From a virus: a stretch of DNA of 64,000 nucleotides. The notes under the pieces were generated by a model. It ran no database searches. It saw nothing but the letters and a program-made list of their open reading frames with translations, and was not told the DNA's origin. Below, piece after piece: positions 12,693 to 32,413 of this stretch. The DNA is taken from IMG/VR virus record IMGVR_UViG_3300022602_003048, positions 29,538 to 93,537 of that record, one strand, 5' to 3'. Within the stretch, counting starts at the first letter, position 1, and each line of letters opens with the position of its first letter. The translations under genes and the position numbers were made by a program.

Positions 12693-12706
12693 CTCACAGT
12701 TACTTA

Positions 12707-12964
12707 TCAGACGTCCTTGCCTGTGGTAACTAAAATACTCTCTAGTTCTGCGAATTCTTCGTTTACTGCACCCCAGTTACGCTTATACGCGACCGAGATA
12801 GCCTTGTTTAGCAGTGCTGGTTTGATATCTAGTTCTTCTGCTACTGCTTTGACGGTGTCTTTCATACCGCCCTTGAGGTCATCAACTTCCTGCAATACCT
12901 GCACACATTGATCGATAACGCTCAACAATTTTGCTTTTTCTTCAGATCCGTAAGTGCGACTCAT
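12707..12964 (-). CDS. small dsDNA-binding protein (T4 DsbA/GapR-like)
   Basis: 85 aa; MKDTVKAVAEELDIKPALLNKAISVAYK helical pattern. Confidence 0.6.
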   Translation of the reverse strand: MSRTYGSEEKAKLLSVIDQCVQVLQEVDDLKGGMKDTVKAVAEELDIKPALLNKAISVAYKRNWGAVNEEFAELESILVTTGKDV

Positions 12965-12985
12965 CTATCTCTCCTTATTTTCTAT

Positions 12986-13014
12986 AGTATACAGGAACGA
13001 TGGACTAAGGTCAA
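12986..13014 (-). promoter_or_regulatory. sigma70-type promoter
   Basis: TTGACC-N17-TATACT. Confidence 0.7.
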
Positions 13015-13017
13015 TGT

Positions 13018-13584
13018 TTATGTTAGTCCTATGATCATGTAGCGATCGTATTCTGTTTCTGGATCTTCTAGAGTTATAGTCCCCTCAAACATCAATTCAC
13101 GCAGTGGATAATCTCTCCGGAATTGTTCTAGGCTATCATACTGATTGACCGCACCGAGATCGTTGTTCCTACCCTGAAGAGCTACTAACGTGTTTTTCGG
13201 AATCGCATCAAACCATCCATCGTTTTTCATGTTAGTTGTGCTTGTGTTTATTATCAAGCTCTTTTTAGTCACTTGCCTGTAGTCTAGGTCGTTCGCATCT
13301 TTGAGCATGTCTACGATGCGATCGTGCAGACCTAATTTCTTGGCGAATCGCTTTCCGTCTCTTAATACTCTAGGATCTGTCTCTACGTTTATTATCTTGT
13401 TAAAATCCCAGTGCTTAGATATCAGCATGATGCTGAGATTGCCGTACCAGCTACCCAATATATAAATAACATCAAATCTATCACTTATCTTAGTGATTTC
13501 TTTTATCAACCAGAGTTTGCTAAACACTAGATCTCGTGTAAAACTACCTTCTAAAGTGTTTGGACTGACTTCATTTATCTTCAT
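13018..13584 (-). CDS. class I SAM-dependent methyltransferase-like protein
   Basis: YILGSWYG motif I-like, NVETD, IINTS; N-terminal MKINEV motif. Confidence 0.6.
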   Translation of the reverse strand: MKINEVSPNTLEGSFTRDLVFSKLWLIKEITKISDRFDVIYILGSWYGNLSIMLISKHWDFNKIINVETDPRVLRDGKRFAKKLGLHDRIVDMLKDANDLDYRQVTKKSLIINTSTTNMKNDGWFDAIPKNTLVALQGRNNDLGAVNQYDSLEQFRRDYPLRELMFEGTITLEDPETEYDRYMIIGLT

Positions 13585-13789
13585 CGTCCCACCGAGTTTC
13601 TATATCTTTTACTATGTCTATGTAGCGCCTGAGAGGATTATTTGATTTCAGTCTCTTATCCTTGGCCAGTGTTTCGAGACCCCGCGCACCCGGACTGACT
13701 GGGTCCTTTATCTGTTTCTTGATATCTTCGACTCCTGGAGATCCCTTGATCTTCTTCATATTAGATTCCGTAGGTGCTCTTGACAGCAT
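13571..13789 (-). CDS. hypothetical protein (start uncertain)
   Basis: Short basic ORF in late operon. Confidence 0.5.
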   Translation of the reverse strand: MLSRAPTESNMKKIKGSPGVEDIKKQIKDPVSPGARGLETLAKDKRLKSNNPLRRYIDIVKDIETRWDDEDK

Positions 13790-14519
13790 TGTAGTTGGCT
13801 GTAACCTGTGTTTGATTCAATGCTATATTATAGACACGCATCTGATAATAGGTTCCGACGCACGCATCCATTGGAGTGCTTGAGGTTCCTGCGTTTGGAT
13901 GCCTAGATCCAAAATTTAGGCCGGTAGAGGTGCTTCCTGGATTAGCATATAGCGTTTGGCTAGCAGTCTGCAAACTACCGTTGATGTATAGCTTCAAGCT
14001 AGGGGTAGCATCGACGGTAACTATTATCTGTCTTATGTTTCCAGTATTTGCCGAAATGCTGTAAGAATTTGCAGCAGCTGAACCACCTATGCTAAGCAAT
14101 GAAGAGCCGCTCCAATATGCGAGATATCCCTTAGAGGCAGTGTAGCTCTCATTGCCCCACAGCGACGACCAATAGGCTGATGGATTTAAATTTACGATAA
14201 CTTCTACAGTAAAAGGTACTACTAAATTGTATGTGGTGGCTATCATGGCCATATTAGTAATCTGAGAAGGACCTAGTATCAATCCGCCGTTATGCGCAGA
14301 AGTATATGTAGCAGATCCTGTACCTGTTTTTATTATAGTACCATTATTGCCATAACCGCTAACATCAGTCCAAGAAATTCCTGAACTAGGAGCGTTCAAA
14401 AGATTCATGACCAGCCCAGTACTAGTACCGGTCCAGGTATTACCTACCGGTCCTTTGCTAGCTGAAACAACAGTTGCAATCTTGCTGATAGCAGTAGTTC
14501 GGCCTGGCTTACGGAACAT
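13761..14519 (-). CDS. LamG/concanavalin A-like lectin domain virion protein
   Basis: WTDVSGYGNNG, LKLYING, MRVYNIAL..V..NY pattern. Confidence 0.75.
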   Translation of the reverse strand: MFRKPGRTTAISKIATVVSASKGPVGNTWTGTSTGLVMNLLNAPSSGISWTDVSGYGNNGTIIKTGTGSATYTSAHNGGLILGPSQITNMAMIATTYNLVVPFTVEVIVNLNPSAYWSSLWGNESYTASKGYLAYWSGSSLLSIGGSAAANSYSISANTGNIRQIIVTVDATPSLKLYINGSLQTASQTLYANPGSTSTGLNFGSRHPNAGTSSTPMDACVGTYYQMRVYNIALNQTQVTANYNAVKSTYGI

Positions 14520-14520
14520 A

Positions 14521-14814
14521 TCAAGCCAATTCTGTTATGCTGATATAACCACTAGTGGTAACCTGCAGGAAAGCAATGTAAGTAAAGCCTGTTCCTGTGC
14601 CTACGGCTATGAATTCTATCTGACCAGCTGGAATGATCATGCTGCTATTTGTAGCAGTAACACTAGATCCGCCTAGGGCTATATAAGTATCTGCTTGCAC
14701 AGCTACCCTTATGACGCTAGTTGATGTGCCAAATGCAGCTGAAACTTGGCTGCTGCCTGAAGTAGCAAAGTTCTGCGTAGTGCCTGGTGCGTAGGCGCCT
14801 TTTCTTAGTAACAT
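14521..14814 (-). CDS. hypothetical beta-rich virion protein
   Basis: 97 aa ORF with SD GAGG. Confidence 0.65.
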   Translation of the reverse strand: MLLRKGAYAPGTTQNFATSGSSQVSAAFGTSTSVIRVAVQADTYIALGGSSVTATNSSMIIPAGQIEFIAVGTGTGFTYIAFLQVTTSGYISITELA

Positions 14815-14824
14815 ATTAGTTTCC

Positions 14825-15046
14825 TCATTTCTTTATGGGACGACAGTCATTGACCATCTTGCCGCCTTTTTTCTTCAATCCTGCTTTACGATATCCAGAC
14901 CAGCAGTGCGTGTTTCCGTTATCATCGGCTTTCTCGTTGATACCTTCAGATTTGATAGAGAGAGAAGATAACCTTCCGGATAGATTCTCTCCGAGACCGT
15001 GCTTATGGTTTAGTTCTATCGCTTTTTCAAGCTCAGTTATTTTCAT
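14825..15046 (-). CDS. small basic protein with CW-x-GY...NDC module
   Basis: MKITEL start; TAAATA 5 nt before ATG. Confidence 0.7.
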   Translation of the reverse strand: MKITELEKAIELNHKHGLGENLSGRLSSLSIKSEGINEKADDNGNTHCWSGYRKAGLKKKGGKMVNDCRPIKK

Positions 15047-15341
15047 GCAGATATTTATCTGTTCGCCTGTGATAGGCTAGATACCATCTGACATATCTGA
15101 GTAGTTCGCCGCCATTTGATCTGATCTGTTTTTCGTTATGCTTCTTGATCTTTTTGGCTTTAGAGCTTATCTCTTTTAGGAATCTAGGATCAGAGCTACT
15201 GCGCCACTGGCTAAGGTCCATATATTGTGCTGCTTGGGATTTTAGGTTTGAATATCTAGGCCTATTCTCAACGTCTTCCAACAGATAATCCCAGTCGGAC
15301 CAATCTATCTCAGTCCAACTACTTAAAGTATCGTAGCGCAT
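15033..15341 (-). CDS. hypothetical protein
   Basis: 102 aa ORF with SD AAGGAG. Confidence 0.6.
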   Translation of the reverse strand: MRYDTLSSWTEIDWSDWDYLLEDVENRPRYSNLKSQAAQYMDLSQWRSSSDPRFLKEISSKAKKIKKHNEKQIRSNGGELLRYVRWYLAYHRRTDKYLHENN

Positions 15342-15345
15342 TTGC

Positions 15346-16572
15346 TTACTCCTTATGGTGTTTTTTCTGTCCAGAGCGCATGTTAGCCATCCAACGGGCT
15401 AGTTGTCCTTTGCGACCCTTAGCGTGGCTTGCTTTCTCTAGCTCTGACTTGGTGGCGTGCTTTGGGATACCGTGCCTAGCACTATCTCCTGCTCGTCCTG
15501 GACCTTTGCCATCGGCAAAGTTCTCGTTAGTTGGAGCAGAAACTTTTTTCTTGTATACGTATAGTTTGTAACCTGAAGCATCATCGCTAAAAATCTTTTT
15601 CTGTTGGACTGGATCAGTTACAGCCTTAAAACCCATCTGCTCAAAGAATTTTGCTGCCCTATCATATAACTTGATTCTGCTTGGTTCGTTTGATTTTGCA
15701 CCCATGACAATTACTTCGGTTTTAGGATGTCTTGCAATAAAGTGGTTCAAGCAATAGGCAACACCATTGAATATTTTAAAAACAGTATCTCTTTCAGTAC
15801 CAGTTGCAGCATGGGTATCAGGTCTACTCTGCGTTTTATTTTCAAATGCCAATATATAATAATTTTCATTATATTCTTTAAATGTGACTTCGATTTTGGT
15901 TTTACCAACGGTGAAATCATAATCAGAACCGTAACTATCTTCATACACATCAAAGTTCTCTGGCGCTTTGTTTACGTCGATAAATTCTCCGATCACTTCT
16001 TTTTTAGCTATCGCTATAGCTGCTTGCTGTGCGGCATTAGCTGCTTCATCTATGTCTTCATTTGGTACACAGTTGTTGACACGGATACCGCCCTTGATCT
16101 TAGTGCCTTCCTTGTGCTTGCCAGTCCAGCATTTTGGATCTAAACGCTGTTTCGTCTCAGCGATATAAGCCTCAGCATATACTATGAGATCGCGCATCTC
16201 TTCGATGCTCTCGCAGTGCCACTTGCGCAGGCTCTTGTTGATCCTTGAGTTTGGATCATGTGCAGTCTTGGCGCCAGTGCGATGTTTCTTCATGCCACGC
16301 ATGCGAGCACAGAAGCTCTTGCGACGCTTGCTAGCCTTGCTGCCCTTCTTGAGCTTGCTAGGCTTTGTAGTGACTGCTGTCTGTAAATGGCTACCTGGAT
16401 GGCTGCGGCGATAGCTAGCAACGCCCTTCTTGTTGAGGCCGCCGTTCTTGTTCTTGCCTTTCTTGGTCTGCCAAGCTTCTGCTTCGTCTATCGGATCGTT
16501 GCAGCCGCAATCACATTCGGCATTACCTATGCATTCTCTGAGATTTTCTGATAAGATTTCTCTGAATTTCAT
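15346..16572 (-). CDS. modular basic protein (putative internal head polyprotein)
   Basis: MKFREILSE N-terminus; modules separated by IDE, IAE, PNE-DIDE, IGE, TNE. Confidence 0.75.
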   Translation of the reverse strand: MKFREILSENLRECIGNAECDCGCNDPIDEAEAWQTKKGKNKNGGLNKKGVASYRRSHPGSHLQTAVTTKPSKLKKGSKASKRRKSFCARMRGMKKHRTGAKTAHDPNSRINKSLRKWHCESIEEMRDLIVYAEAYIAETKQRLDPKCWTGKHKEGTKIKGGIRVNNCVPNEDIDEAANAAQQAAIAIAKKEVIGEFIDVNKAPENFDVYEDSYGSDYDFTVGKTKIEVTFKEYNENYYILAFENKTQSRPDTHAATGTERDTVFKIFNGVAYCLNHFIARHPKTEVIVMGAKSNEPSRIKLYDRAAKFFEQMGFKAVTDPVQQKKIFSDDASGYKLYVYKKKVSAPTNENFADGKGPGRAGDSARHGIPKHATKSELEKASHAKGRKGQLARWMANMRSGQKKHHKE

Positions 16573-16575
16573 AGC

Positions 16576-17055
16576 TTACCTCTTGACATTCTTCCACATC
16601 GCTGCGGCAGCTACTTTTTCGCCTTTTTCTTTAGAGCCATACTTCTTGGCAGCTTTGTCTGCTATTGCTTTGAATCCTTTACCCTTCTTGCCAATATCTT
16701 TACCTGCATGGGCTTTCTTAGCTACTGCTGATTTCTTCTTCTTGCTGAGACCCGCAGACGGCTTAGATTCTATCAGTTGATTCTCAAGATTACGATGTAG
16801 TGCTTCCATGTATTCCTCGCCTACTGGTTCGTTCGTACCGTATTGTTTTTCATACATCATGTAATCATGCACTGTGTTTAGATAATCTGCTGCTTTAGTG
16901 ATCTTGGCAGCTACCCAGCCCTCTAGATTTTCGCCTGGTTCTATCATCTTGAATAGTTCCATAGCGTTCTTTATAGCATTGTAAAGCTCACCTCTCGCCA
17001 TGCTAGCTTCATGATCGTGTGTTCCGTAATCAGTTGGTTCGTGCATATCGTGCAT
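16576..17055 (-). CDS. hypothetical protein with Lys-rich C-terminal module
   Basis: EASMARGEL...WVAAKITKAADYL domain, then LIE followed by a highly basic module. Confidence 0.75.
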   Translation of the reverse strand: MHDMHEPTDYGTHDHEASMARGELYNAIKNAMELFKMIEPGENLEGWVAAKITKAADYLNTVHDYMMYEKQYGTNEPVGEEYMEALHRNLENQLIESKPSAGLSKKKKSAVAKKAHAGKDIGKKGKGFKAIADKAAKKYGSKEKGEKVAAAAMWKNVKR

Positions 17056-17064
17056 GGCAATATC

Positions 17065-17322
17065 CTATCTCTTTATGGATGGGCCGCCGAATAGGCTAGT
17101 GCCCTTCATATCTAATGCGTTTACAGCAGTACCCATCTTGGTCTTTGGTTGTACTGCTTTTGGGGGTTTCGGTGCTTTGGTTCCGCTCTTGCCAGGGGAT
17201 CCTGTATAGCTCTTGTTTCCTCGGGCTTTTCCTATAGCTACGTTTGGATTGACGACAGTAGCTATGCTGCCTGCTGAAGTAGCACCTGCTGAAGCATACT
17301 CAAATAACTCTTTTATCTTCAT
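17065..17322 (-). CDS. small basic protein (putative internal head protein)
   Basis: MKIKELFE start, ASAGATSAGSIATV; TAAATA 5 nt before ATG. Confidence 0.7.
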   Translation of the reverse strand: MKIKELFEYASAGATSAGSIATVVNPNVAIGKARGNKSYTGSPGKSGTKAPKPPKAVQPKTKMGTAVNALDMKGTSLFGGPSIKR

Positions 17323-17353
17323 AGAAATATTTATCTCTGAATCAGATAAGAAG

Positions 17354-17378
17354 GTGCGGGAGATTGGATCTCCCGCAC
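17354..17378 (-). terminator. rho-independent terminator hairpin
   Basis: GTGCGGGAGAT-tgg-ATCTCCCGCAC inverted repeat downstream of the nuclease gene, followed by CTTCTT. Confidence 0.7.
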
Positions 17379-17401
17379 TGATATATTATTAAAGATCGAT
17401 A

Positions 17402-18238
17402 TTAGTCTTCGGTGCCTGGTGCGCCCTTGCAAGCTGCCTTCTTAGCATCGGCAGTCTTCTTTAGATCCACTGGCCAAACTGCTGCGGCTGGCTTGGTCTT
17501 GTCAGTGCCTGGGGGGACAGGGAAACTGATACCTGTAGCCTGTTCGATGCTAGCGATGCTAACCAAATGTGCTGGTAGATCGATAGGTTGTGAAGCTACC
17601 TGTGGGAAAGTGAAAGCCAGCACCTGTTTGGTATTGTCGTCGATCACGATCTTGTAGAGGAAGTCTGGAACTACGACATTGTCTGCACCGATAGTCTTGC
17701 TCTTGCCCACTGTGTAGATGTTACCTGCATATACTGTGTAGTTATGACCATTTCCATAAGTCCATGCACGCACGTTGCTTTCTAGAGCTTTCCAGATACC
17801 GCGGTTTAGGTTTGGTAACTGTGGACTCATGTTTGACATTAGGAATGATTCGTATTCAACCTGTGTATCCCAGCTCATGTCACCGTCTGGAGCAAGATGT
17901 CCTTGGTCATATCCTGAACCAGCGTAATCAGATGGTTTAGAACCGTTAGCACCAAGGATAGTATCAGCTACGAATGCATTTGTGCGAGGAACACATCCGA
18001 TAGCGTGTTGCGGGGTGAGCGTATATGCTACCCAAGCTGGTATCTTAGCTGCATTGTCGTGCTGTAGGGCATACCCAGTGTGGCATTCCACAACAGTGTT
18101 TGCTTTATTTAGAACCGGCGCACCATATGGTACCTGTGCTGCGCAAGCTGTGATCGGTTGGTTGGGTTTTTGATCCCAAGCAAATACTGCACCTGTGAAT
18201 CCTAGGAACAATAATGCTGATATTACTATTTTCTTCAT
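17402..18238 (-). CDS. secreted DNA/RNA non-specific endonuclease (NucA/Serratia family)
   Basis: Signal peptide MKKIVISALLFLGFTGAVFA; YDQGHLAP, SFLMSNMSPQ, LNRGIWKALE, VPDFLYK. Confidence 0.9.
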   Translation of the reverse strand: MKKIVISALLFLGFTGAVFAWDQKPNQPITACAAQVPYGAPVLNKANTVVECHTGYALQHDNAAKIPAWVAYTLTPQHAIGCVPRTNAFVADTILGANGSKPSDYAGSGYDQGHLAPDGDMSWDTQVEYESFLMSNMSPQLPNLNRGIWKALESNVRAWTYGNGHNYTVYAGNIYTVGKSKTIGADNVVVPDFLYKIVIDDNTKQVLAFTFPQVASQPIDLPAHLVSIASIEQATGISFPVPPGTDKTKPAAAVWPVDLKKTADAKKAACKGAPGTED

Positions 18239-18252
18239 GCTATCTCCTTTTG

Positions 18253-18268
18253 CATAAGTATACTTATG
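18253..18268. promoter_or_regulatory. palindromic divergent late promoter pair
   Basis: CATAAGTATACTTATG perfect palindrome giving TAAGTA on both strands between divergent genes. Confidence 0.55.
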
Positions 18269-18736
18269 ACTATTAAAGTAACAGATATTTATTCCAGAAT
18301 CAAGAATAATCTATCTCTGGAAAATGCAAAAAAAGCACTATGGTTTTCAGCTGGTATCATATTCCTAGGTATAGCTTATCTAGGGACGTTTGTTCCTGGA
18401 TTACCTTGGTCAACTCCGAGCCTGTTAGCTGCATGGTGCTTTAGCAAAAGCAGCAAGCGTTTTCACGACTACATGCTCAACCATAGACTTTTTGGACCGT
18501 TCATAAAGAACTGGAGCAGTGGGAGGGTATTTCCTAAGATCGCTAAGTGGCTCATGTTCTTGAGCATGGATGGTAGTTTAGTGATCATGTGGTTTACAAC
18601 ACATAATGTGAAACTAGTTGTAGGTATGGCAGTGTTTTTTGCTTTGATATTGATTTGGGCAAGTCGTTATCCAGGATCTAAGGAAGAAGCTGATCGCAGG
18701 ATAGCAGCCGGCGAAAAATTAGGTTGGTTTAAGTAG
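18266..18736 (+). CDS. YbaN/DUF454 family inner-membrane protein
   Basis: G..VPGLP..P..LLAAWCFSKSS.RFH..L..H..FGP.I..W pattern. Confidence 0.85.
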   Translation: MTIKVTDIYSRIKNNLSLENAKKALWFSAGIIFLGIAYLGTFVPGLPWSTPSLLAAWCFSKSSKRFHDYMLNHRLFGPFIKNWSSGRVFPKIAKWLMFLSMDGSLVIMWFTTHNVKLVVGMAVFFALILIWASRYPGSKEEADRRIAAGEKLGWFK

Positions 18737-19255
18737 ACTCTTCTTTAATGCCTGTATAGCATCGCCTACGTGGCTGTCTTCGTATTTTATTCCTATACCA
18801 CCAGCAGCTTCCCAAGCACGTATGTTCTTACCAAAATCGTCAATCAGTATGTTAGGAGTGCCATCTGCTTGGGTGGCATGTGCTGCCTTGTTATGTGTGA
18901 TAATCACTTCTTTTGGAGGGAACGCATGCAGATGCTTCTTGACCCACTCTCTCTTCTGTGGCTCGCTGTTTGGATCGCCTGCTAAGGGTGTGCTGCATAT
19001 GTTGTAAGCACCTGCGAATTTCTTCACTGCTCCCAATAGCTTTCCTGCTCCTTGCAAGACCGGTAAGTCGATCCAAAATGTGGGATGATCTCTCACTAGC
19101 TGTAGCTTTGCTTCTGGATTCTCTATGTCCTTGTAGTGAGATTTACCGTCTAGCGCAGCCCATGCTCCAAAGAAATCAGCTAATACTCCATCCATGTCTA
19201 CGTAGACTTCTGGTTTCTTTTCTCTGCCTTCGCTGTCTACTTCGAATATCTTCAT
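18719..19255 (-). CDS. HAD 5'(3')-deoxyribonucleotidase (NT5C-like)
   Basis: YVDMDGVLADF, K..WV, ILIDD, W..AGGIGI; MKIFEV start. Confidence 0.85.
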   Translation of the reverse strand: MKIFEVDSEGREKKPEVYVDMDGVLADFFGAWAALDGKSHYKDIENPEAKLQLVRDHPTFWIDLPVLQGAGKLLGAVKKFAGAYNICSTPLAGDPNSEPQKREWVKKHLHAFPPKEVIITHNKAAHATQADGTPNILIDDFGKNIRAWEAAGGIGIKYEDSHVGDAIQALKKSLLKPT

Positions 19256-20077
19256 CTATCCTACCTCTTGGTATTCGATCCACTCGTCTGGAGTGACTCC
19301 TTGTTTCTTTTTAAATGCATCATGCAGCTGCTTTGGTGTTATATCGTTATCTTTGCTTATCTTTTTCATCATGCTATCGATCTCAAAATAGGTATGATCG
19401 CGCTTGTTAGTAGCCAGCAGGTCATCTTCTAGCCTGCTGACTGCTGTGTCTAGAGATTTCTCTAGCTTCTTCTTGGCCTTCTTATCAGCTTCAAAGATAT
19501 TGCACCATCCTTTTGGATCTATGTTTCCTATGACAGCTGTGCATTGATTTGGTTTCTTCCACATAGTGCATAGTTCGCAGTAGTTGTCCTTCTTAGGATG
19601 ATCTTGGTACTTTACAGCACCCTTTGTCTTCCGAGGTTTGGCTACTTCAAACAGTTTTTTGTTGAGTTCTAAACCTTCTCTCAGCGGTTTGATATCAAAC
19701 GCTTCGGGATGTGCTGCATCAAACTTGCGCATGATGATACCTGCGACCGCATGTGCTTCGTTTTCTTGTGGACTTCCATCCTCGCCGCTACGATGATTGA
19801 TCTCGCCCTTGAGATTCTGTTTATAATGTACTAGCTCATGGGCTAGTGTGCGCATGATGTCTAGTATGTGTCTGTTTCCTATCTCTACTAATACTTCATT
19901 TGTGTTGTTAGTAAAACTACCAAAGCTGTGGTGCTTTCGGTGATGTTCACCGTCTATCGCCCATTTGATAGGAGGTAAGTGATCTAGTTCTAGCATTTCC
20001 TTACACAGTATAAGGAAATCTCTGAATAAGTCAATCAGCTGATTTGGATTTGGGCTGTTTACTTCATTTATCTTCAT
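19256..20077 (-). CDS. zincin metallopeptidase-like domain + HiPIP-like 4Fe-4S module + C-terminal helical module
   Basis: RTLAHELVH...ENEA; YQDHP..CxxC..C..V.G.I.P.GWC; MKINEV start. Confidence 0.75.
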   Translation of the reverse strand: MKINEVNSPNPNQLIDLFRDFLILCKEMLELDHLPPIKWAIDGEHHRKHHSFGSFTNNTNEVLVEIGNRHILDIMRTLAHELVHYKQNLKGEINHRSGEDGSPQENEAHAVAGIIMRKFDAAHPEAFDIKPLREGLELNKKLFEVAKPRKTKGAVKYQDHPKKDNYCELCTMWKKPNQCTAVIGNIDPKGWCNIFEADKKAKKKLEKSLDTAVSRLEDDLLATNKRDHTYFEIDSMMKKISKDNDITPKQLHDAFKKKQGVTPDEWIEYQEVG

Positions 20078-20292
20078 TTCGTGCGCCCCCTAAACCCAAC
20101 CGGGCGTTCCTGTGTTAGATAAGGCCTGCTAAACCACAGCTGGAACCATTCTGGAGTTCCTGGACGTATGTTATTAGTCTTCATCAGATTGGCTTTTTCC
20201 ATGCCAGTGACAGAGATATTGCTACCTTCATATGGTGTCATGCCCTTGTATTCTTGTATCCCTGCCAGTTTCCTAAGTTCATCTAGATTCAT
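20074..20292 (-). CDS. conserved small phage protein
   Basis: MNLDELRKLAGI; IRPGTPEWFQLWFSRPYLT. Confidence 0.7.
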   Translation of the reverse strand: MNLDELRKLAGIQEYKGMTPYEGSNISVTGMEKANLMKTNNIRPGTPEWFQLWFSRPYLTQERPVGFRGRTK

Positions 20293-21785
20293 AATTTGAA
20301 CGCCTTTAGATTTTTTTTGATAGTCCTTGGACCTACGTCTGCTGTGCTGTTTTGCTTTGTTACAATTCCAACTCCTGCAGCTTCTTCGTCGACATTATAA
20401 TCTGTTAGATTAATTGGTCTTATTCTAAAATGAGGTTGAAAATAATATCCTATATTTTTATTCAGATTTTTTAATACTTCTTGTTTTGCTAAGTTATATG
20501 CTTTATCTTTATCTTTAAGTTTTTTATAAAAAGTATAAAAGCTACTATTTTCTTTTATTTGCCTTTCAATAAACTTTTCGAACATAGGAAGAGTTAATCC
20601 AAATTCTTCAATATTATGTTTTTTGTAAATTGCTTCAATTGATAGTAATTGACTATCCTCAGCAACCGCAACATTTGGGAATTCATAAGAAGCATATTTC
20701 TTGTGATAATCAGGATTACTGCTACCACCGAAACGCTTTGCTATAGCGTTATATGCCCTAAGTCGACCTAAATCTTTCTTAGCAGCTTGGAATGAGATAT
20801 TCTTGATCTCAGGATGGCGTTTCATATGATAGATGACGATGGCCTTTACTGTTCCTAGGATTTTTGCTGCGTCAAAAGGATGCTCACCAGTCATCTCTTC
20901 AGAATCATCGCTGGCCCTGTAAAATGTCACATGGCCTGTGCCTGTTCTTTCCTCATAAAATATAGAGACATTGATTTTAGATCCCTTACTAGGGGTAAAA
21001 CTATAGATGGAGACATTATCGCCATCATAACCTTTATACTTGAACTTATATGCAGAATCTAATGTTTCATCTATGTCTTCTGCTGTGCCTCTGGAAGCTC
21101 TGAATATATCCTGTGTCGAAGCATAGTTACCCCATACATCGGCAGCATTGCTGCCTTTCTTTCCAGCAGCACTTAGTGGGCTCTGGTTATCACCTGCTTC
21201 TTTGACTTTCTTGCCCTTCTTGGCAGCAGCATCTGCATAAGGAAGGAGATATTCTGCTACTAGATCAAAGAATGGCTTGCCTGCTATCTTGGTTTCGCTT
21301 GAAACTCCGGCAGCATCGCTAAATGCTTTGCGATCACCCTTTATCACAGCGTCACGCAGGGCTGTAGCACTGCTCAAACGAGGAGTAGGTGTCTGTTCTA
21401 TGTGTGGGAAATCGTAATATCCGTGTGGACCTTCTTTGCCGTTATACTGCATAATGGTCTTAGTGACCCAATCTTCATCAGTTAGGCACTTGAGATTTAC
21501 TTTTCCGTGCTTTTCGTAAACCATGCTAGCCAAGGTAAGCCAACTGATTTCAGCTATTATATGTTTGGCTACGTCGGGCCATATAGCTTCCATGGCCTGT
21601 ACTTTTACTTCATAAGGTAATGGATCCTTTGGGCCAACTGTGCTCTTGTTGGTACCTACGTACCAAACGGGGCTCTTAGCAGCCAATTCCCAAGCGGCCC
21701 TATGTCCCTTGTGTGGTGGATTGAATCTGCCGAAGATTATAGCGACTTCGTTTCCAGTTGACTCAAAAAATTCTCTCAATAACAT
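20289..21785 (-). CDS. HIGH-motif cytidylyltransferase-like protein with appended modules
   Basis: FGRFNPPHKGH, DPL...K, SSATALR; start re-assigned to MLLREFFE (ATG 21785). Confidence 0.78.
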   Translation of the reverse strand: MLLREFFESTGNEVAIIFGRFNPPHKGHRAAWELAAKSPVWYVGTNKSTVGPKDPLPYEVKVQAMEAIWPDVAKHIIAEISWLTLASMVYEKHGKVNLKCLTDEDWVTKTIMQYNGKEGPHGYYDFPHIEQTPTPRLSSATALRDAVIKGDRKAFSDAAGVSSETKIAGKPFFDLVAEYLLPYADAAAKKGKKVKEAGDNQSPLSAAGKKGSNAADVWGNYASTQDIFRASRGTAEDIDETLDSAYKFKYKGYDGDNVSIYSFTPSKGSKINVSIFYEERTGTGHVTFYRASDDSEEMTGEHPFDAAKILGTVKAIVIYHMKRHPEIKNISFQAAKKDLGRLRAYNAIAKRFGGSSNPDYHKKYASYEFPNVAVAEDSQLLSIEAIYKKHNIEEFGLTLPMFEKFIERQIKENSSFYTFYKKLKDKDKAYNLAKQEVLKNLNKNIGYYFQPHFRIRPINLTDYNVDEEAAGVGIVTKQNSTADVGPRTIKKNLKAFKL

Positions 21786-21793
21786 ATCTATTC

Positions 21794-22951
21794 CTAGGTT
21801 GGCGTCCAACGCTTTCGCGGCACGAATTTCACGTTGCCAAACTGCTTGTTCTGGTCAGCATAACGCACACGCCCTTCGCCCTTAGTATCCCATATATCTC
21901 CCTGTGGTCCGTCCACTTGGTCGATGATATCGTCCTTCATCTTCTGTATCTCTTTGACCAGAGTGAACATGGCTTCCAGTGCTTGAGGATGCGCCACTGC
22001 TATCTCTTTTATCTTGGCCTGCTTTGGTCCGCTTACCTTGCTCTTAGAAAGCCACTCGTTGAAACTTTTTGCTCCTAGATTGTCTAGCTGTTTGGCCTTA
22101 GCAGTCTGGTTTACATAGGTATAGATTATATTCTTGAGATCACTCATTCCTGCACGGTCTTCTAGGAAACCGTTTATCTGTGCGCCGTGCTTCCTGACAT
22201 ATGCTTCTACTTGGTCTATCGACTGTGTGTTGATCTTTACTGGTTTAGTGTTGTATACTGGTCCTAGCACTATGAGATTTTGATTGCTGTTGAACTTGCT
22301 GAAATCGCTGATTGGTTTCTGATCGCTATCTGCCATACCAAATTCTGGAAAGAACGCATGCCCTACGACCATCACCTGTGCATTAGCTATCCTCTTACCT
22401 AGCTCGCTGTTAGCACGGACATGGTAACCTGTACCACTCTTGGGGTTAGGAAAGAAGTTATAGACTCCTTGTGCGTCTAACTGCGGACGCTTTAAGAACA
22501 GTCCGTCTGCGTAGACGAACCCAACAAAATCCTTAGGTGTTCCCTTGTTGAATATAGGATATAGGCTAGCGAATTCATCAGCAAACTGATCCCTAGCTTC
22601 TTTCTCTTCTGGAGTCTTTGGTGATCCGCTCTTGTTAGCGATGAAATCTTTTAGATCTTCCGGATTGTCTGTCTTAGCACCTCGGCTCCAACCGTTGTGT
22701 CCTGCCAGTATCAGAGGACCGTTTTTAACCTCACGTCCCCAATATATCTGCGGATTACCGTCCCACTTCATGCGCAGGCTACCAGCACCTTCTTGGGTGC
22801 TCATCTCTTTTATGTGTGCTAGTGCTTCGCCAGCACCTTCGGTACCATGGAAGAAGACTAAGTCTTCGAGATGATTGAACGCACGACCTAGCTTCTTAGC
22901 AGGTGCAGCTTCCTCAGCTTCTCTGATACCAAACAGTTCATTCAACAACAT
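21794..22951 (-). CDS. DUF6267-like protein with ligase/nucleotidyltransferase motifs
   Basis: FNHLED, MKWDG (KxDG), GEGRV, VKFVPR; MLLNELF start; TAAATA at 22976-22981. Confidence 0.65.
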   Translation of the reverse strand: MLLNELFGIREAEEAAPAKKLGRAFNHLEDLVFFHGTEGAGEALAHIKEMSTQEGAGSLRMKWDGNPQIYWGREVKNGPLILAGHNGWSRGAKTDNPEDLKDFIANKSGSPKTPEEKEARDQFADEFASLYPIFNKGTPKDFVGFVYADGLFLKRPQLDAQGVYNFFPNPKSGTGYHVRANSELGKRIANAQVMVVGHAFFPEFGMADSDQKPISDFSKFNSNQNLIVLGPVYNTKPVKINTQSIDQVEAYVRKHGAQINGFLEDRAGMSDLKNIIYTYVNQTAKAKQLDNLGAKSFNEWLSKSKVSGPKQAKIKEIAVAHPQALEAMFTLVKEIQKMKDDIIDQVDGPQGDIWDTKGEGRVRYADQNKQFGNVKFVPRKRWTPT

Positions 22952-22981
22952 TACTGATAAACTTCCTTATTGGAATATTTA

Positions 22982-23197
22982 TCAATCCAAGTGTACTGTA
23001 AAGTACTGTCCATTATGTGCCCCTCGATAGGGGATGGTCTCGTCAGCACGTACCATGAAGATCTCGATCTTGGTGCCCTGTGGACGCACAGTCATCTTGG
23101 TTTTGTCCTTGCTCAATATATCAGCAGAGATCTTTTGACCAGTTTCTGGATGTACAAGCGTGCATTTAGTCTTGTTTGGAACCTTGGTTGACTTCAT
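22982..23197 (-). CDS. hypothetical protein
   Basis: ATG 23197 after GGAG; own sigma70 promoter. Confidence 0.6.
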   Translation of the reverse strand: MKSTKVPNKTKCTLVHPETGQKISADILSKDKTKMTVRPQGTKIEIFMVRADETIPYRGAHNGQYFTVHLD

Positions 23198-23218
23198 GAT
23201 ACTCTCCAATTTTGTTTA

Positions 23219-23250: not shown

Positions 23251-26200
23251 TTATGCCCAGGTACCTACACTGGTATTGGCACCACTTGCGCCGATCGGCC
23301 ATATCTCTATAGTAGCACCTGCCTGCACGTATGAGCTAGACCCTGGGGTTTGGCTGTTAGAGAATCCAAGTTGTGGTATCACTGTACCACCTGTGGTTAC
23401 ATCTATACTGCCATCTATGATAAGGTTGTAGTAAGCAGTACCGCTTATGCTATTTGACACAGTGACTAGGGTAGTGAATCCTGTGGTGATGTGGTTGCTC
23501 ATCTGATAGACCTGGGTCGGAGTTGTTTGACCGCTGCTGCATGCTGGATTTACGATGTAGGTATGCTGTGCCAATGTTGCGGTCCCTGCCAGTGCATACT
23601 GTATGCCGCTCGAAGTCCTTACTCCGCTTGACGCATATATTGTGCAGAGTATGCGATACTGATAACGTGTTCCGCTGCTCAAAGTCACACCAACACCTAG
23701 CAGGCTCTGTGTGCTAGATTGGTTAGCTAGAGAATAGTTAGCGTTTAACACATAGTATTGCAAGGACGGTAATATACCACGCTGTGCTCCTTGTGGTGTG
23801 AAATATAACGCCTTGCCATCATATTCTGTAGCACCAGCTGAGGCACTGGTTAGGTTAGAACCAGCCACGAATGTCAGCGGATCGACGCTGTTGGTTCCTG
23901 CTGACAGTGTGACCGGACCTGGGAAAGTAACTGCGCTAGGCAAGCTGATCGTTACTGAACCCGTGCTAGCTGAAACTGATATCTGGTTAGCTGTCCCTGC
24001 TAAGCTGGTTACTGCTGTCTGCAGAGGAGTGAATCCTAATGCTGTAGTGACTTGGCTGGATGAGAGTGAACCGCTATAGGTTCCTGTTATGCTAGCTGCT
24101 GTACCGCTAACGTTACCGGTAACGTTACCGGTCAAGTTACCAGTGAAGGTCGTAGCACTCACGCTGGTCAGCCCGCCTAGAATGGTTGATGTAGCACCTA
24201 GTGAGATGCTGGTAGAACCTATAGTAACTGAGCTGTTAGTGAGCTTGCTGTTGGCGATGCTGCCTGCTAACATGGCGTTTGTTACAGTGCCAGTGTCATT
24301 GGATGTTATTATGCCAGTCACTGAACCGGTGTATCCGTTGACAGCGAGGACGCCATTGTTGGTTATAGTAACATTGCCTGTGCCTGAGCTAACTCCTATA
24401 CCTAGTCCTGCTACAGCAGAAGTAACACCTGCGTTCGTCAGTGTACCGCCACCAGTGACTGCTAGTCCTGTGCTGACTATCACACTACCGAGCGTTGAAG
24501 TAGTCGCTGCTATGTTTGGACCAACCGATCCAGTATAACCTATGTTGCCCTGCGATCCCGCATAGCCGACTGTTCCCTGCGATCCAGTGTAACCGAACGA
24601 TCCCCAATAGCCCTGCGAGCCTGTGTAACCATAGGAACCAGTAAATCCGAATGATCCAACAAAACCTAGATTGCCCTGAGAGCCTACATATCCGACTGCG
24701 CCTAGTGATCCTGTATAACCTATGGTTCCTTGCGATCCCGCGTATCCACTACCAGTATAACCTGTGGGTCCTACGATAGCACCAACATCGGTCCATGCAG
24801 CACCACTCCATACATATAAGTGGCCGCTAGCAATGACTATGTATCCGTCGCCGACAGTGTTGCCGCTGGCTGGGAGAGCACCTACGGTAGCTACAGATCC
24901 CTTGAGTGTAGTGTTTGTTCCCTGTGCGCCCTGTGGACCTTGTGATCCTGCATAGCCTACAGAACCCGCATAACCTGTGAATCCTATAGAACCAGTATAA
25001 CCTGCGACACCAAATGATCCAGTGTACCCGCTGATTCCCTGTATGCCCTGTGATCCAGTAAAGCCAACGCCTTGCATGCCCTGTGGACCCTGTGAACCAG
25101 TATATCCGATAGATCCAAATGACCCGGTGTATCCTACAGCACCAGCTGCGCCAGCTGATCCTAGATAGCCTCTAGAACCAGTATAACCTATTGGAACAGT
25201 GCTGCTGACCGTGATAGTGCTTCCTGCTGTGGTCATAGACACACCGCTACCTGCAGTGAATGTTAGGGTATCGTTGTTAGAGATAGCAGTGATAGTGCCC
25301 TGTCCGGTCACGAATACGTTTTTGAATATGTTCTGCTGCGAACCTCCGTCTGCGTTGGTCAATATTATAGATCCACCGAGCGACACAGTGCCACCGCCCG
25401 ATAGGCCAGAGCCAGCAGTTACAGTCACTGAGCTGTTGGTTAGCTTGCCGTTGGTAATGCTGCCGGCTAGCATTAGGTTAGTGACCGTACCTGTATCAGT
25501 GGTATAGACACCGTGTGTCACTGTTCCGGCATTGCCAGAGACGTTGCCTGTCACGTTTCCGGTCACGTTACCTATGACATTACCATATACAGATCCAGTG
25601 AATCCAGTTGCCGTGACAGAACCTGCCACGTTTAAACCTGTATCGCTGATAATAGCACGTATGTTAGTGCTTAGTGTCCCCCCGGTGTGGAACTTTATTA
25701 CAGCACCTGCTGTGCTAGTACCTATCGTTAGGTTACCGTTAGCATTGTATAGATAAGCGTCATTAGCTCCACTGACTGTCCAACCCACACTGGTGCCATT
25801 ATAAGTACTGGAATTGATACCCATGTCTATGAAATAGCTGCTATCGTCGCCTAGGTCGTTGCTAGCTACGAAATCTGTGCTTGCGTTGGTACCATTGCTG
25901 TGGTTCTGCTGTACCAGCTGCACGTAAGAATTAGCATTTTCATCTATCTGTAGGAAAGCGTTCGGGTAAGCAGATCCAACGTAAGCAGTACCGAACCTAG
26001 CAGTATTAGAAACGCTGATAGTGTTAGCAGATAAGCTGCCTGTGTCTACTTCGCTGGCTACTTTTATGCCAGCAGTTCCTAGATCCCAGTAGTTGTTGGT
26101 CAGATTGTAGAGTATCTGTTGCGCGAACGGACTGGCGCCTAATATGATACCACCGCCGTCTATCTGGCTCGCACCTGTTGATCCTGTAGCTAGATATAGT

Positions 26201-28173
26201 ATCTTACCGGCTATTGTTGAGCTGGTGTTTACTGTGCTGGTCCCATTGACAGTGAGATTGTTCACTGTTAGGTTGTTGAATGTTGGATTGGCAGTAGAAT
26301 CTATGTTCTGTGGCAAGCTAAGCGTTAGGTTCTTGTTACCGGCGTCCGTGACATAGATTTGTGCCTGCGTACCGTACACATTCTGAACGCCCGTAGCGTT
26401 CATCGTGATGTTACCTGTAGTTCCGCTTTGGTACAGGCCGGTGCCCGCAGTGATGCTGGTTACTACATTTCCTGTGATCTGGTTGGCGCTTACGGAACCA
26501 GTCCACGCAGTAGTTTGCCTAGTGCCATCTGACCAAGTGATACCTCCGCTGCCTCCCTGTAGAAGGGTGATGCCTGTGGTGTCTATGGTTAGGGTGTTGT
26601 CCTGTATGGTATTCGTGCCTACTGGTGTAAGGTTTATGGCAATCTTGCTGCCTTTGGCTGAATCTGTGTAATTTTCAGCAGCAACAACGCTGATGTTTCC
26701 GACACCCAGACTATTAAAACCAGTCGCACCATAACCATTTCCGGCTATCCTCATCAGCGTGTCGCCTATCTGCGTAGCTGATGGAGCACTAACAGTACCT
26801 CGGGCCATGCGCCCTGCTATGACATTATATGTTCCTGCGCCATAGGCGTCAACGATTAGCCTAGCAGACTGTCCTGTTTGGTTGATCCAATGTGTGAGCG
26901 TTCCAGCATTGCTCAATGGAGTACCGCTTTGGCCGCTTCCATAGATCTTTAGAGGGCTGTCATTTGCCCCAAATGCTGTTGAGATGACAGTGAAATTACC
27001 GCTGTTGACCGTAGTGCTTCGGTTGATGATGAAACTGCCAGTGGCTTCGATACTGCCTAACAATATGTCCTGCGATGTATCTACTAATCCAATCTTGTTG
27101 CCGTTGAAGAGGAAATTACCGACCTGGAGTCCATCGCCACCTTGTACATATAGGTTACCATCGCGGGCTCCTATGGCTATATCTGTTCCTAGCGTCTCGT
27201 CTAACACGTAGATCGTGCCAGCACCTAACCATATTTCCCTGAATCTCCTGGCGGGACTACCTAGCCTCCATTGGTCTGTGGTATAGGGTAGGATATCGTT
27301 GTGAGGCACGATATTACCACCAGGTCCCGCATTTAGCGTGATATCTGTGTTGGCCTGTGTCTGTATACTCAATCCAGCGTTGACGATTGACCGTGCGGTG
27401 GTTACTGTAGTGCCTGCAGCAGGCGCGGTCGCTGTACCAAAATCAGTGTTAACTATCACATAGGTAGCATATGAATTGCTACCTACATAGACTACTGTGC
27501 TGTTCGTAGGGATACCGGCACCTGCTATTATATCTCCGACCTGTAGTATGGGTGAGGGAGTAGTAGTGAAAGAATAGACAGTCCAAGGAGCTATTATACC
27601 GTTGGGTATCCCATACTGTCCCACGGTCAATGCTGTAGTAGAACTGTGGTCTATCACTGCTGCTAATGTTAGGTTGGCTATGTTGGCTACTATCTGGCTG
27701 GTGTCGCTGATCAGCGTACCCGCCGGTATCTTGACGCCATTGGTTGATAGATATCCCGAGCCGTTGGGATTTATCACTATGTCGCCGTTGACATCATTGC
27801 CTGTTATGGTTTGGTCTACGATGGTTAGATTGCCTAGATTGTTGAAGTTGCTGGTAGTGAGATAGCCAGCATCATTGAAGAAAGCACTCACATTGGTAGG
27901 GATCGCTGCTACAGATATAACACCATTGCTGTCGATGTTGATGTTAGAACCTATCTTCACGCCGCCTAGTGTTGAACTGGTAGCCTGTGGCAGCGTGTAA
28001 GCCATAGCGATGCGATTGGTATTGTCTGTGAGCTGGCTAACATCGGTAGGTATGTTCGAAGTAGCAGCGTAAACCTCACCAAAGTTCTGGTTGATCTTAT
28101 CAAAGGCAGAGTATAAACCTTCTCCATCTCCTGCTAGCGGTCCTGAACCTATGTTGATTATCTGTTTTGTCAT
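23251..28173 (-). CDS. tail fibre protein with collagen-like segment
   Basis: 1640 aa, G/T/S-rich; N-terminal KQIINIG..GDG..L..AF.KIN.NF baseplate-attachment motif; GNVTGNV and GYTGS repeats. Confidence 0.85.
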   Translation of the reverse strand: MTKQIINIGSGPLAGDGEGLYSAFDKINQNFGEVYAATSNIPTDVSQLTDNTNRIAMAYTLPQATSSTLGGVKIGSNINIDSNGVISVAAIPTNVSAFFNDAGYLTTSNFNNLGNLTIVDQTITGNDVNGDIVINPNGSGYLSTNGVKIPAGTLISDTSQIVANIANLTLAAVIDHSSTTALTVGQYGIPNGIIAPWTVYSFTTTPSPILQVGDIIAGAGIPTNSTVVYVGSNSYATYVIVNTDFGTATAPAAGTTVTTARSIVNAGLSIQTQANTDITLNAGPGGNIVPHNDILPYTTDQWRLGSPARRFREIWLGAGTIYVLDETLGTDIAIGARDGNLYVQGGDGLQVGNFLFNGNKIGLVDTSQDILLGSIEATGSFIINRSTTVNSGNFTVISTAFGANDSPLKIYGSGQSGTPLSNAGTLTHWINQTGQSARLIVDAYGAGTYNVIAGRMARGTVSAPSATQIGDTLMRIAGNGYGATGFNSLGVGNISVVAAENYTDSAKGSKIAINLTPVGTNTIQDNTLTIDTTGITLLQGGSGGITWSDGTRQTTAWTGSVSANQITGNVVTSITAGTGLYQSGTTGNITMNATGVQNVYGTQAQIYVTDAGNKNLTLSLPQNIDSTANPTFNNLTVNNLTVNGTSTVNTSSTIAGKILYLATGSTGASQIDGGGIILGASPFAQQILYNLTNNYWDLGTAGIKVASEVDTGSLSANTISVSNTARFGTAYVGSAYPNAFLQIDENANSYVQLVQQNHSNGTNASTDFVASNDLGDDSSYFIDMGINSSTYNGTSVGWTVSGANDAYLYNANGNLTIGTSTAGAVIKFHTGGTLSTNIRAIISDTGLNVAGSVTATGFTGSVYGNVIGNVTGNVTGNVSGNAGTVTHGVYTTDTGTVTNLMLAGSITNGKLTNSSVTVTAGSGLSGGGTVSLGGSIILTNADGGSQQNIFKNVFVTGQGTITAISNNDTLTFTAGSGVSMTTAGSTITVSSTVPIGYTGSRGYLGSAGAAGAVGYTGSFGSIGYTGSQGPQGMQGVGFTGSQGIQGISGYTGSFGVAGYTGSIGFTGYAGSVGYAGSQGPQGAQGTNTTLKGSVATVGALPASGNTVGDGYIVIASGHLYVWSGAAWTDVGAIVGPTGYTGSGYAGSQGTIGYTGSLGAVGYVGSQGNLGFVGSFGFTGSYGYTGSQGYWGSFGYTGSQGTVGYAGSQGNIGYTGSVGPNIAATTSTLGSVIVSTGLAVTGGGTLTNAGVTSAVAGLGIGVSSGTGNVTITNNGVLAVNGYTGSVTGIITSNDTGTVTNAMLAGSIANSKLTNSSVTIGSTSISLGATSTILGGLTSVSATTFTGNLTGNVTGNVSGTAASITGTYSGSLSSSQVTTALGFTPLQTAVTSLAGTANQISVSASTGSVTISLPSAVTFPGPVTLSAGTNSVDPLTFVAGSNLTSASAGATEYDGKALYFTPQGAQRGILPSLQYYVLNANYSLANQSSTQSLLGVGVTLSSGTRYQYRILCTIYASSGVRTSSGIQYALAGTATLAQHTYIVNPACSSGQTTPTQVYQMSNHITTGFTTLVTVSNSISGTAYYNLIIDGSIDVTTGGTVIPQLGFSNSQTPGSSSYVQAGATIEIWPIGASGANTSVGTWA
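24525..25190 (-). repeat. collagen-like Gly-X-Y repeats (G[YF][TAV]GSx)
   Basis: Two blocks of GYTGSQ/GYAGS/GFTGS repeats interrupted by a small globular domain. Confidence 0.85.
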
Positions 28174-28949: not shown

Positions 28950-29652
28950 TTGCTTCTTCCTGTTGTTTGAGTTCTTCTTCTGTTATCATCCTTATCACTT
29001 CTTTAATAATGGGATCTGCTACTAATCTCATCATCAAGAGGTACTGTTCGTCCTTGATGTATAGATAATTCTGATAGAACCAACGCTTATCCGGTTCTCT
29101 CAGGTACTGCCTAAACCCATGAGTTACGTGTTTGAACTTATCTGGATGCCTCTCTAATAGATTGTATATGGACTGTTTGTTGGTGTATGGCAGACTAGTC
29201 TTTGGGTTGGTCAGCATGAGCTTGTAGCGGCAATCGTGTGTCAGCTGTTTCTTTATCATAGTCCTTTCGTTGGACAATAGATAATCTAGAGCCTGATTAT
29301 CAACTGGTTCATAGAATTCTTGGAAACAGTCCTCGGGGAGGACAGCTAGTGCCCGGTCTAAGAAACTGCGATCCTTGAAGAACAGGCTGAATCTGTATCC
29401 TTCTATCCTAGTGCGCAGCTCATTACGATCATATCCTGATAACAGATCAAAGAGATTGGACACAGCAGCTTGGTTCCTCCAAGCTGCTTCTCTAACTCGT
29501 CCGGCCGGTGGTTTCTTGTGCTTCTTTACCTGCTCAAATTCATGAGCAGACAACAGCTTTGCGCACATAGCCCATGTTGATCCTATGACCAATTTGTAGG
29601 GGAAGATCCTATAATATAGGCTCTCAGACTTGTGATAAGACAGCATCAGCAT
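28942..29652 (-). CDS. hypothetical protein
   Basis: 236 aa ORF overlapping the clpA stop. Confidence 0.65.
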   Translation of the reverse strand: MLMLSYHKSESLYYRIFPYKLVIGSTWAMCAKLLSAHEFEQVKKHKKPPAGRVREAAWRNQAAVSNLFDLLSGYDRNELRTRIEGYRFSLFFKDRSFLDRALAVLPEDCFQEFYEPVDNQALDYLLSNERTMIKKQLTHDCRYKLMLTNPKTSLPYTNKQSIYNLLERHPDKFKHVTHGFRQYLREPDKRWFYQNYLYIKDEQYLLMMRLVADPIIKEVIRMITEEELKQQEEANV

Positions 29653-31873: not shown

Positions 31874-31877
31874 AACA

Positions 31878-32378: not shown

Positions 32379-32384
32379 AACATT

Positions 32385-32413
32385 ATTATATAACAGAACC
32401 CAAGTTTAATCAA
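32385..32413 (-). promoter_or_regulatory. sigma70-type promoter, leaderless def transcript
   Basis: TTGATT-N17-TATAAT-N6-ATG; no SD. Confidence 0.65.

Follow-up and report, generated by a model that had tools for sequence, protein, structure and literature searches.

The closest described counterpart of the genes considered here is the capsid-targeting sequence (CTS) of bacteriophage T4, a short N-terminal peptide found on the unrelated proteins IPI, IPII, IPIII and Alt and removed by the protease gp21 (Mullaney and Black, 1996, reviewed in PMC9026906). Within this tag, residues 4 and 7 serve targeting and residues 8 and 10 serve processing, and a foreign protein can be loaded into the head by the first ten residues alone (PMC9026906). 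The cargo of T4 includes an enzyme (Alt) as well as small basic proteins. The internal-protein loci of the T-even phages follow the same scheme, with different bodies under one leader at a variable locus (Repoila et al., 1994, cited in PMC9026906). Giant phages related to phiKZ likewise contain many head-internal proteins that are cut after Glu by a related protease (SPN3US gp245, phiKZ gp175); these phages belong to another lineage, however, and their propeptides mostly exceed 100 residues and end in an A/S-x-E motif (PMC5694885). Here we describe a 64,000-nucleotide stretch of viral DNA from IMG/VR record IMGVR_UViG_3300022602_003048, referred to as the window, in which nine genes of a single 10 kb cluster begin with a common six-residue motif. 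With a probability of roughly 0.65, these nine N-termini represent a T4-type capsid-targeting and head-protease tag on a cargo of enzymes and basic peptides.

The window spans bases 29538-93537 of a linear 93.5 kb contig with a CheckV completeness of 24%; coordinates are window positions unless marked as genome positions. Judged by its family-B DNA polymerase, the contig is a fragment, about one quarter of the genome, of a jumbo phage of the T4 superfamily, because this polymerase shares 44-51% identity with its counterparts in Sinorhizobium phage Phosso, Agrobacterium phage Atu_ph07, Yersinia phage fHe-Yen9-04 and the Escherichia coli 121Q/PBECO4 group. The tagged cluster lies between the polymerase gene and a gene for a collagen-repeat fibre protein of 1640 amino acids (aa), and all of its genes but one are on the minus strand. 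The 10 kb cluster had no megablast match among 50,697 phage records. The nine starts listed in an earlier note on this DNA are all present on the minus strand, at 13584 (MKINEV), 15046 (MKITEL), 16572 (MKFREILSE), 17322 (MKIKELFE), 19255 (MKIFEV), 20077 (MKINEV), 20292 (MNLDEL), 21785 (MLLREFFE) and 22951 (MLLNELF), and all fit the pattern M-x-[ILF]-x-E-[VLIF].

Genes were called by a rule-based procedure blind to the motif (first ATG, greedy non-overlap), with the cluster defined as window 12700-23210. Of the 18 cluster genes, 8 begin with the pattern M.[ILFVM].E[ILFVM], versus none of the 93 genes in the rest of the 93.5 kb contig (Fisher 1e-7), and the enrichment anticipated in the earlier note is thereby borne out. 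Amino acid composition predicts 0.42 matches per contig, and 2 of 609 internal Met residues match. The ninth gene (14825-15046) was displaced in calling by an overlapping plus-strand open reading frame (ORF); it has several PHROG hits. A chance origin, or a by-product of selection on mRNA starts (A/T-rich early codons, Lys at position 2), would agree with the MK starts that are common across the contig and with a motif that constrains four positions only. Neither accounts for the absence of matches outside the cluster compared with eight to nine inside it, for Glu5 and the hydrophobic residue 6 that stay fixed while their codons vary, or for the conservation of the tag in distant homologues, and we regard this explanation as extremely improbable. 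A composition or translation-ramp effect was likewise rejected on the absence of the motif from those 93 genes. The 60 nucleotides (nt) upstream of the nine starts are unrelated to each other and the tag codons differ (AAA/AAG, GAA/GAG, GTC/CTT/ATC/TTA), so the similarity is kept at the level of protein and not as a DNA cassette. On the same grounds, a repeated DNA cassette or a promoter-plus-start recombination module was ruled out. The bodies behind the tags are unrelated, as had been claimed: with the first 12 residues removed, one pair alone (the 73 aa and 408 aa proteins) shares a module, a Cys-flanked basic unit.

Comparison with T4 (NC_000866) places the motif close to the CTS. Both ipII and ipIII begin with MKTYQEFIAEA, ipI with MKTFKEF and alt with MELITELF, giving a core of hydrophobic-x-Glu-hydrophobic at residues 4-7 (YQEF, FKEF, ITEL). 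The window tags show this core at residues 3-6 (INEV, ITEL, FREI, IKEL, IFEV, LDEL, LREF, LNEL). In both systems a pair of hydrophobic residues three apart surrounds a Glu and is followed by, or contains, a hydrophobic-x-Glu cutting site, and this predicted prohead-protease site is present in all nine window tags. The commonest leader of the DUF6267 family, to which one of the tagged proteins belongs, is MRAREFLKEAEA, which aligns with MKTYQEFIAEA residue for residue after a shift of one residue. The two systems differ in several respects. In the window, nine tagged genes stand in one 10 kb block, and the cargo would consist of NMNAT-like nucleotidyltransferase, ligase-like DUF6267, 5'-nucleotidase, zincin-like and methyltransferase-like proteins; the putative cutting site is seen again at junctions within fused homologues, and the system is known from genes alone. 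The T-even loci, as they are cited in PMC9026906, concern close enterobacterial relatives of T4 with small basic cargo, whereas the window belongs to a distant aquatic jumbo lineage with enzyme cargo and modular fusions. As a control, the four-position motif was applied to T4 itself, where it heads 10 of 279 called genes; about half of these are gp21 substrates or their kin (ipI, ipII, ipIII, gp24 and alt.-1, a duplicate of the alt start). The four-position motif alone is thus moderately specific, and its strength comes from density and conservation. A separate observation concerns T4 gene 61.1 (54 aa, hypothetical; NC_000866 18966-19130), whose product begins with MKTFKEFIKE, a near-copy of the ipI leader; the gene adjoins primase gene 61, where cyanophages keep tagged genes.

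The tagged genes are all on the minus strand, and two of them encode a repeatedly tagged pair of proteins. The first of these (21794..22951) encodes the 385 aa DUF6267 protein (assigned by Pfam), which has the tag MLLNELFGIRE. A K62-W-D-G motif is invariant in 37 sequences. In its AlphaFold2 (AF2) model, with a predicted local distance difference test (pLDDT) score of 88, residues 1-23 are disordered and lie outside the fold. A Foldseek search of the model against the PDB gave nothing below E 0.001, while a slower aligner placed RNA and DNA ligases as the best fold matches (Z 5-6.8). The ligase fold assigned in the earlier note is consistent with these matches and with the invariant KWDG, with Z scores that are low; the protein is a candidate ligase-like or capping-type nucleotidyltransferase with weak fold scores. 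DUF6267 homologues of 414-423 aa (P0002, P0003, P0012 and others) contain a 30-residue Cys-flanked basic insert (KYKRSINC.NPKGFSQKAHC.GRKK) between tag and body, which resembles a mobile mini-module, like the CW..NNCVP unit of the 73 aa and 408 aa window proteins.

The other member of the pair (20289..21785) encodes a 498 aa protein with the tag MLLREFFES, a HIGH-type NMNAT/cytidylyltransferase-like domain recognized by PHROG and motif, and a long C-terminal part. Its N-terminal domain contains FGRFNPPHKGH (HxGH motif, read from the sequence), it matches the cytidyltransferase PHROGs 3041 (4e-13) and 395 (5e-11), and tblastn homologues annotated as cytidyltransferases occur in 167 phage records. 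By these matches it belongs to the HIGH-motif nucleotidyltransferases (NMNAT/cytidylyltransferase-like). Neither the 385 aa nor the 498 aa protein had a match in sequence searches of the PDB. A third enzyme is the 178 aa NT5C/HAD 5'-deoxynucleotidase (18719..19255; tag MKIFEV), identified by Pfam NT5C (1.5e-12; 48.2 bits against a cut-off of 24.8) and PHROG 2643. Together with the DxDGV motif VDMDGVLADF in its sequence, these hits assign it to the NT5C 5'(3')-deoxyribonucleotidase (HAD) family. The 273 aa protein at 19256..20077 (tag MKINEV) has a zincin-like domain with HExxH (HELVHYKQ), a Cys-rich middle and a helical tail, all read from its sequence. The 188 aa protein at 13018..13584, which also begins with MKINEV, has a weakly methyltransferase-like body (PDB sequence matches at E 0.006); its homologues begin with MRLQEISPNT, MITESAP or MIVIELFED.

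The remaining tagged proteins are basic. The 408 aa modular protein (15346..16572; tag MKFREILSE) is composed, according to Pfam and PHROGs, of DUF6321, a CW..NNCVP unit, DUF6934 and a basic tail, and its DUF6321 part is found in 307 phage records, mainly of cyanophages and pelagiphages. A 73 aa protein (14825..15046; tag MKITEL) has the CW..G..C module, identified through its PHROG hits. PHROG 10346 (a profile of 525 positions) joins in one family the C-terminal tail of the zincin, the CW..C unit and DUF6321, which are on separate genes in the window; this combination shows module shuffling among these proteins. From its sequence, the 85 aa protein (17065..17322; pI, isoelectric point, 10.4) begins with MKIKELFE followed by a ASAGATSAGSIATV motif, and its orthologues begin with MKIRELLE, MKIKELLE and MKISEIINE. 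The 72 aa protein at 20074..20292, known from sequence, starts with MNLDEL, the weakest of the nine tags. Its counterpart PIHELK lies inside longer ORFs of 103 aa in some relatives (L005, L006, L051) and is N-terminal in others (L069, L074), and MNLDEL is doubtful as an N-terminal signal. Taken together, the bodies named in the earlier note stand for the NT5C/HAD, DUF6321 plus DUF6934, DUF6267 and cytidyltransferase families; the methyltransferase assignment is weak and the zincin is seen from its HExxH motif alone.

Conservation of the tag was followed in relatives of the cluster. An IMG/VR scan with the zincin-like protein yielded 240 related places, from which 80 loci were kept. The strict tag heads 200 of their 1697 called genes compared with 0.5% of internal Met residues, extending to relatives the enrichment seen in the contig. 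In the closest loci (L003-L006), gene order and tag are both kept while the tag residues drift, for instance from MKFREIL to MRLNEVL, from MLLREFF to MFLRELL and from MKIKELFE to MKIRELLE. Among the homologues of the 273 aa zincin-like protein that are colinear at the N-terminus, 23 of 42 have the strict tag and many others begin with MRA[RK]EF. Ala at position 3 (MRAREF, MRAKEF) is found in many homologues, and the strict pattern therefore undercounts. Of the 120 best DUF6267 homologues in a collection of 5.8 billion proteins, 104 begin with M.[ILFVMA].[ED][ILFVM], often as MRAREFLKEA; the linker after the tag varies freely, and the conserved body starts from about residue 20.

Fused homologues add a further line of evidence. 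In HAD-zincin, nucleotidyltransferase-zincin and zincin-NT5C fusions, the tag is at the extreme N-terminus whatever the domain order, and in two jumbo phages of enterobacteria, 121Q and GAP32, this nucleotidyltransferase domain occurs but lacks the tag extension. Because of this placement in all fusions, the disorder of residues 1-23 in the DUF6267 model and the missing extension in 121Q and GAP32, the tag is best described as an appended signal and not part of the fold. At internal junctions a shorter signature persists. In L005 and L006, NT5C is fused behind the zincin, and the junctions read LRISEV and LKVTEV where the window has MKIFEV. Hydrophobic-x-Glu is kept at the aligned position in 9 of 11 fusion junctions (e.g. 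ITVTE, ETFTE, TQLSE), and the next hydrophobic residue is not. This pattern fits a protease site that marks module boundaries. Because hydrophobic-x-Glu marks such boundaries in the fused relatives, some of the cargo is probably delivered as polyproteins that are then cut apart.

The same junctions bear on the idea that the motif is a mere cutting site, for the prohead protease or another enzyme, or a structural helix cap at module boundaries, with packaging determined elsewhere, such as by the basic modules. The loss of the following hydrophobic residue at internal junctions agrees with it, as do the untagged basic proteins within the same cluster and the T4 scaffold proteins, which also carry hydrophobic-x-Glu-type sites near their N-termini. 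It does not explain why the tag stays at the extreme N-terminus of fusion products in any domain order, why the first ten residues alone are enough for targeting in T4 (PMC9026906), or why two soluble, acidic proteins without a basic module, NT5C (pI 6.4) and the methyltransferase-like protein (pI 5.8), are tagged. We consider a cutting site alone unlikely.

A T4-type tag would need a gp21-type protease, and the earlier note proposed to look for one elsewhere in the genome. The contig, at 24% completeness, yielded no Peptidase_S77 (gp21-type), an absence that is uninformative in such a fragment, and this protease is present in each of three near-complete relatives (326, 328 and 400 kb) with tagged zincin homologues; the lineage, like T4, thus has such a protease. 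The complete 400 kb relative, G003, has 13 tagged genes among 484; one of them, an 80 aa gene starting MILRELF, directly follows the presumed portal gene, matching T4 gp67 in both position and size.

Proteomes of cultured cyanophages provide decisive, if indirect, evidence for this interpretation of the tag. In the virions of S-CREM2 (OR473000), 52 of 219 proteins are detected (PMC10665884). A pattern modelled on T4, MK.[FYLIM]..[FLIM][ILMV].E, heads exactly four of the 219 S-CREM2 genes, and all four products are in the virion proteome: a S-adenosylmethionine (SAM) hydrolase (gp6), a small protein (gp13), a kinase (gp14) and a cytidylyltransferase (gp154) (PMC10665884). The chance that all four would be virion-detected is about 0.003, for a pattern written after the sequences had been seen. 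In the window register, gp15 (MNFSEF) is also in the virion list. Each of the four local matches that tblastn gave between window proteins and S-CREM2 lies within a virion-detected protein: gp137, matched by the zincin-like C-terminal tail and by the DUF6321 part of the 408 aa protein; gp154, the homologue of the 498 aa protein; and gp160, matched by the CW..G..C module of the 73 aa protein. NMNAT-like proteins recur in cyanophage virions, and PMC9602691, which notes this, leaves open whether they are cargo or carry-over; those of S-SCSM1, S-CBWM1 and S-CREM2 (NMNAT/cytidylyltransferase-like proteins; PMC9602691 and PMC10665884) are homologous to the 498 aa protein.

The cyanophage and Melnitz versions of this protein begin with MKNFSSFLTE (S-CREM2), MKSFSQFLTE (P-SSM2), MKNFHQFITE (S-SRM01) and MKKFSEIIEA (Melnitz), and the tag in the window is shorter by one residue. 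Four tagged genes stand in a row in Methylophilales phage Melnitz, starting MQGFKTFLSEA, (L)INFSKYITED, MKKFSELTSE and MKKFSEIIEA. On these sequences, the same tagged gene set is present in other aquatic T4-like phages (Melnitz, P-SSM2, S-SRM01). No mention of a capsid-targeting sequence occurs in the passages searched in PMC9602691 and PMC10665884, and the one paper returned by a full-text literature search for such sequences in cyanophages, a T4 review, does not link the two. The comparison with the T4 CTS drawn in the earlier note has thus withstood confrontation with the T4 tag core, the protease of the lineage, conservation in homologues, disorder of the N-terminus and virion detection in cyanophages.

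In place of packaging, the tag could address another machine, such as a phage Clp-like unfoldase acting with DnaJ and deformylase, and serve as a degron or chaperone handle controlling the timing or folding of the proteins. Just upstream of the cluster, a minus-strand block (29624-33286) encodes a ClpA/ClpB-like double AAA+ protein (749 aa), a peptide deformylase (166 aa) and DnaJ (289 aa); L005, L006 and G003 have this block ahead of their tagged clusters too, and an N-terminal, disordered position suits a degron as well as a targeting peptide. However, this synteny may just reflect a large conserved block, and a Clp handle leaves the T4 tag match, the virion detection of tagged homologues and the junctional hydrophobic-x-Glu unexplained; it appears rather improbable. 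A leader for a modifying enzyme, for example one of the radical-SAM enzymes encoded by the contig, is very unlikely. Although such enzymes are present, their island ends more than 13 kb before the cluster start (genome coordinates), the tagged genes of S-CREM2 and Melnitz are in replication modules (judged by gene position only), the tag spans 6-10 residues and shows no pattern of Cys, Ser or Thr, and virion detection is not predicted. The Clp handle, the cutting site, the modifying-enzyme leader and the translation artefact all explain less than a T4-type tag does.

If the T4-type tag is accepted, its amphipathic start, with hydrophobic residues 3 and 6 around Glu5, would bind the scaffolding core during prohead assembly, and the attached enzyme or basic peptide would thereby be enclosed in the head. 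The gp21-type prohead protease would then cut after the Glu of hydrophobic-x-Glu, freeing mature cargo inside the head, and the cargo would exit with the DNA at infection. The nine tagged enzymes and small basic proteins are, on this sequence evidence, probably carried in the virus particle. A broader and more tentative proposal is that hydrophobic-x-Glu forms a position-independent code for cargo modules in aquatic T4-like and jumbo phages. Under this code, enzyme and basic-peptide modules might be split, fused and shuffled as polyproteins, and a kit of ligase-like, NMNAT-like, 5'-nucleotidase, metalloprotease-like and methyltransferase-like proteins might be loaded by means of the N-terminal tag, separated by the head protease and injected against NAD-, nucleotide- or RNA-based defences of the host before phage expression.

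Several observations weigh against a capsid-targeting role. On the side of the motif, the tag register differs from that of T4 by one residue, only four tag positions are constrained, the T4 control also matches the non-head proteins 61.1, e.8, gp48 and gp54 as well as one small ORF, and the window register of the motif matches T4 lysozyme. Among homologues, the zincin of S-SRM01 is untagged as annotated, S-CREM2 gp159 (MNFSELNKD) is not detected in virions, and the homologous cyanophage genes lie between helicase and primase, a replication-module position. The authors of the S-SCSM1 proteome (PMC9602691) allow for non-structural proteins as carry-over from high expression, and the virion evidence comes entirely from cultured cyanophages while the window phage is known from DNA alone. 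Finally, no protease or capsid gene is found in the 24% complete contig, and an own late-type promoter box precedes only three of the nine tagged genes.

Should the tag work as it does in T4, a motif of six residues would predict which proteins an uncultured giant phage brings into the cell. It would also explain the 'non-structural' enzymes in purified cyanophage particles, over which authors have hesitated between cargo and contamination. The tag offers a cheap rule for listing candidate injected proteins over thousands of aquatic phage genomes, and it singles out the repeatedly tagged pair of the ligase-like DUF6267 protein and the NMNAT-like nucleotidyltransferase. The mechanism would extend T4 biology and involves no new principle.

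Other genes of the cluster are untagged. On the minus strand, these are genes for 72 aa, 252 aa (LamG/concanavalin-like; Laminin_G_3, 3e-8) and 97 aa proteins at 13571..14814, a 102 aa basic protein starting MRYDTL (15033..15341) and a 159 aa protein with a basic C-terminus (16576..17055), the last two described from sequence. The 159 aa protein is kept in relatives, with 14 distinct homologues, none tagged. A 278 aa Endonuclease_NS (17402..18238, minus strand; Pfam 5.7e-41) has a signal peptide, its N-terminus reading MKKIVISALLFLGFTGAVFA, and is probably exported and not capsid cargo; its position inside the cluster is conserved in L003-L006. The sole plus-strand gene of the cluster encodes a 156 aa DUF454 membrane protein (18266..18736; Pfam 9.5e-27). 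The 1640 aa gene (23251-28173, minus strand), probably for a fibre and containing collagen triple-helix repeats, is an insertion that separates the Clp/DnaJ block from the tagged cluster; L005, L006 and G003 do not have it at that position.

Promoter-like elements were also found in and around the cluster. The contig contains 23 copies of the heptamer ATAAATA, which forms the core of late promoters in T4, and 19 of these boxes have a same-strand ORF start within 60 nt, compared with 26% for permuted heptamers. On the minus strand, such boxes lie at 22976..22982 (24 nt before the 22951 start), at 17328..17334 and 15052..15058 (each 5 nt before the starts at 17322 and 15046) and at 18286..18292 (47 nt before the nuclease start at 18238). 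Others precede genes for 1208 aa and 249 aa proteins, taken as structural from size and place. The boxes suggest late expression of the genes they precede, covering three of the nine tagged genes, and it is on these that the description of the whole as a late cluster rests. A GC-rich, terminator-like hairpin of 11-12 bp (17354..17378, minus strand) lies between the nuclease gene and the gene for the 85 aa protein. A scan for sigma-70-type promoters gave 16 sites against 21.5 expected and was uninformative. Six of the ATAAATA boxes end 4-5 nt before ATG (window 15052-15058, 17328-17334 and 57237-57243; genome positions 8617, 8635 and 22305, outside the window), and a T4-type start about 6 nt downstream of these six would give leaderless mRNAs. 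The remaining boxes lie 21-25 nt upstream of starts, leaving space for a ribosome-binding site.

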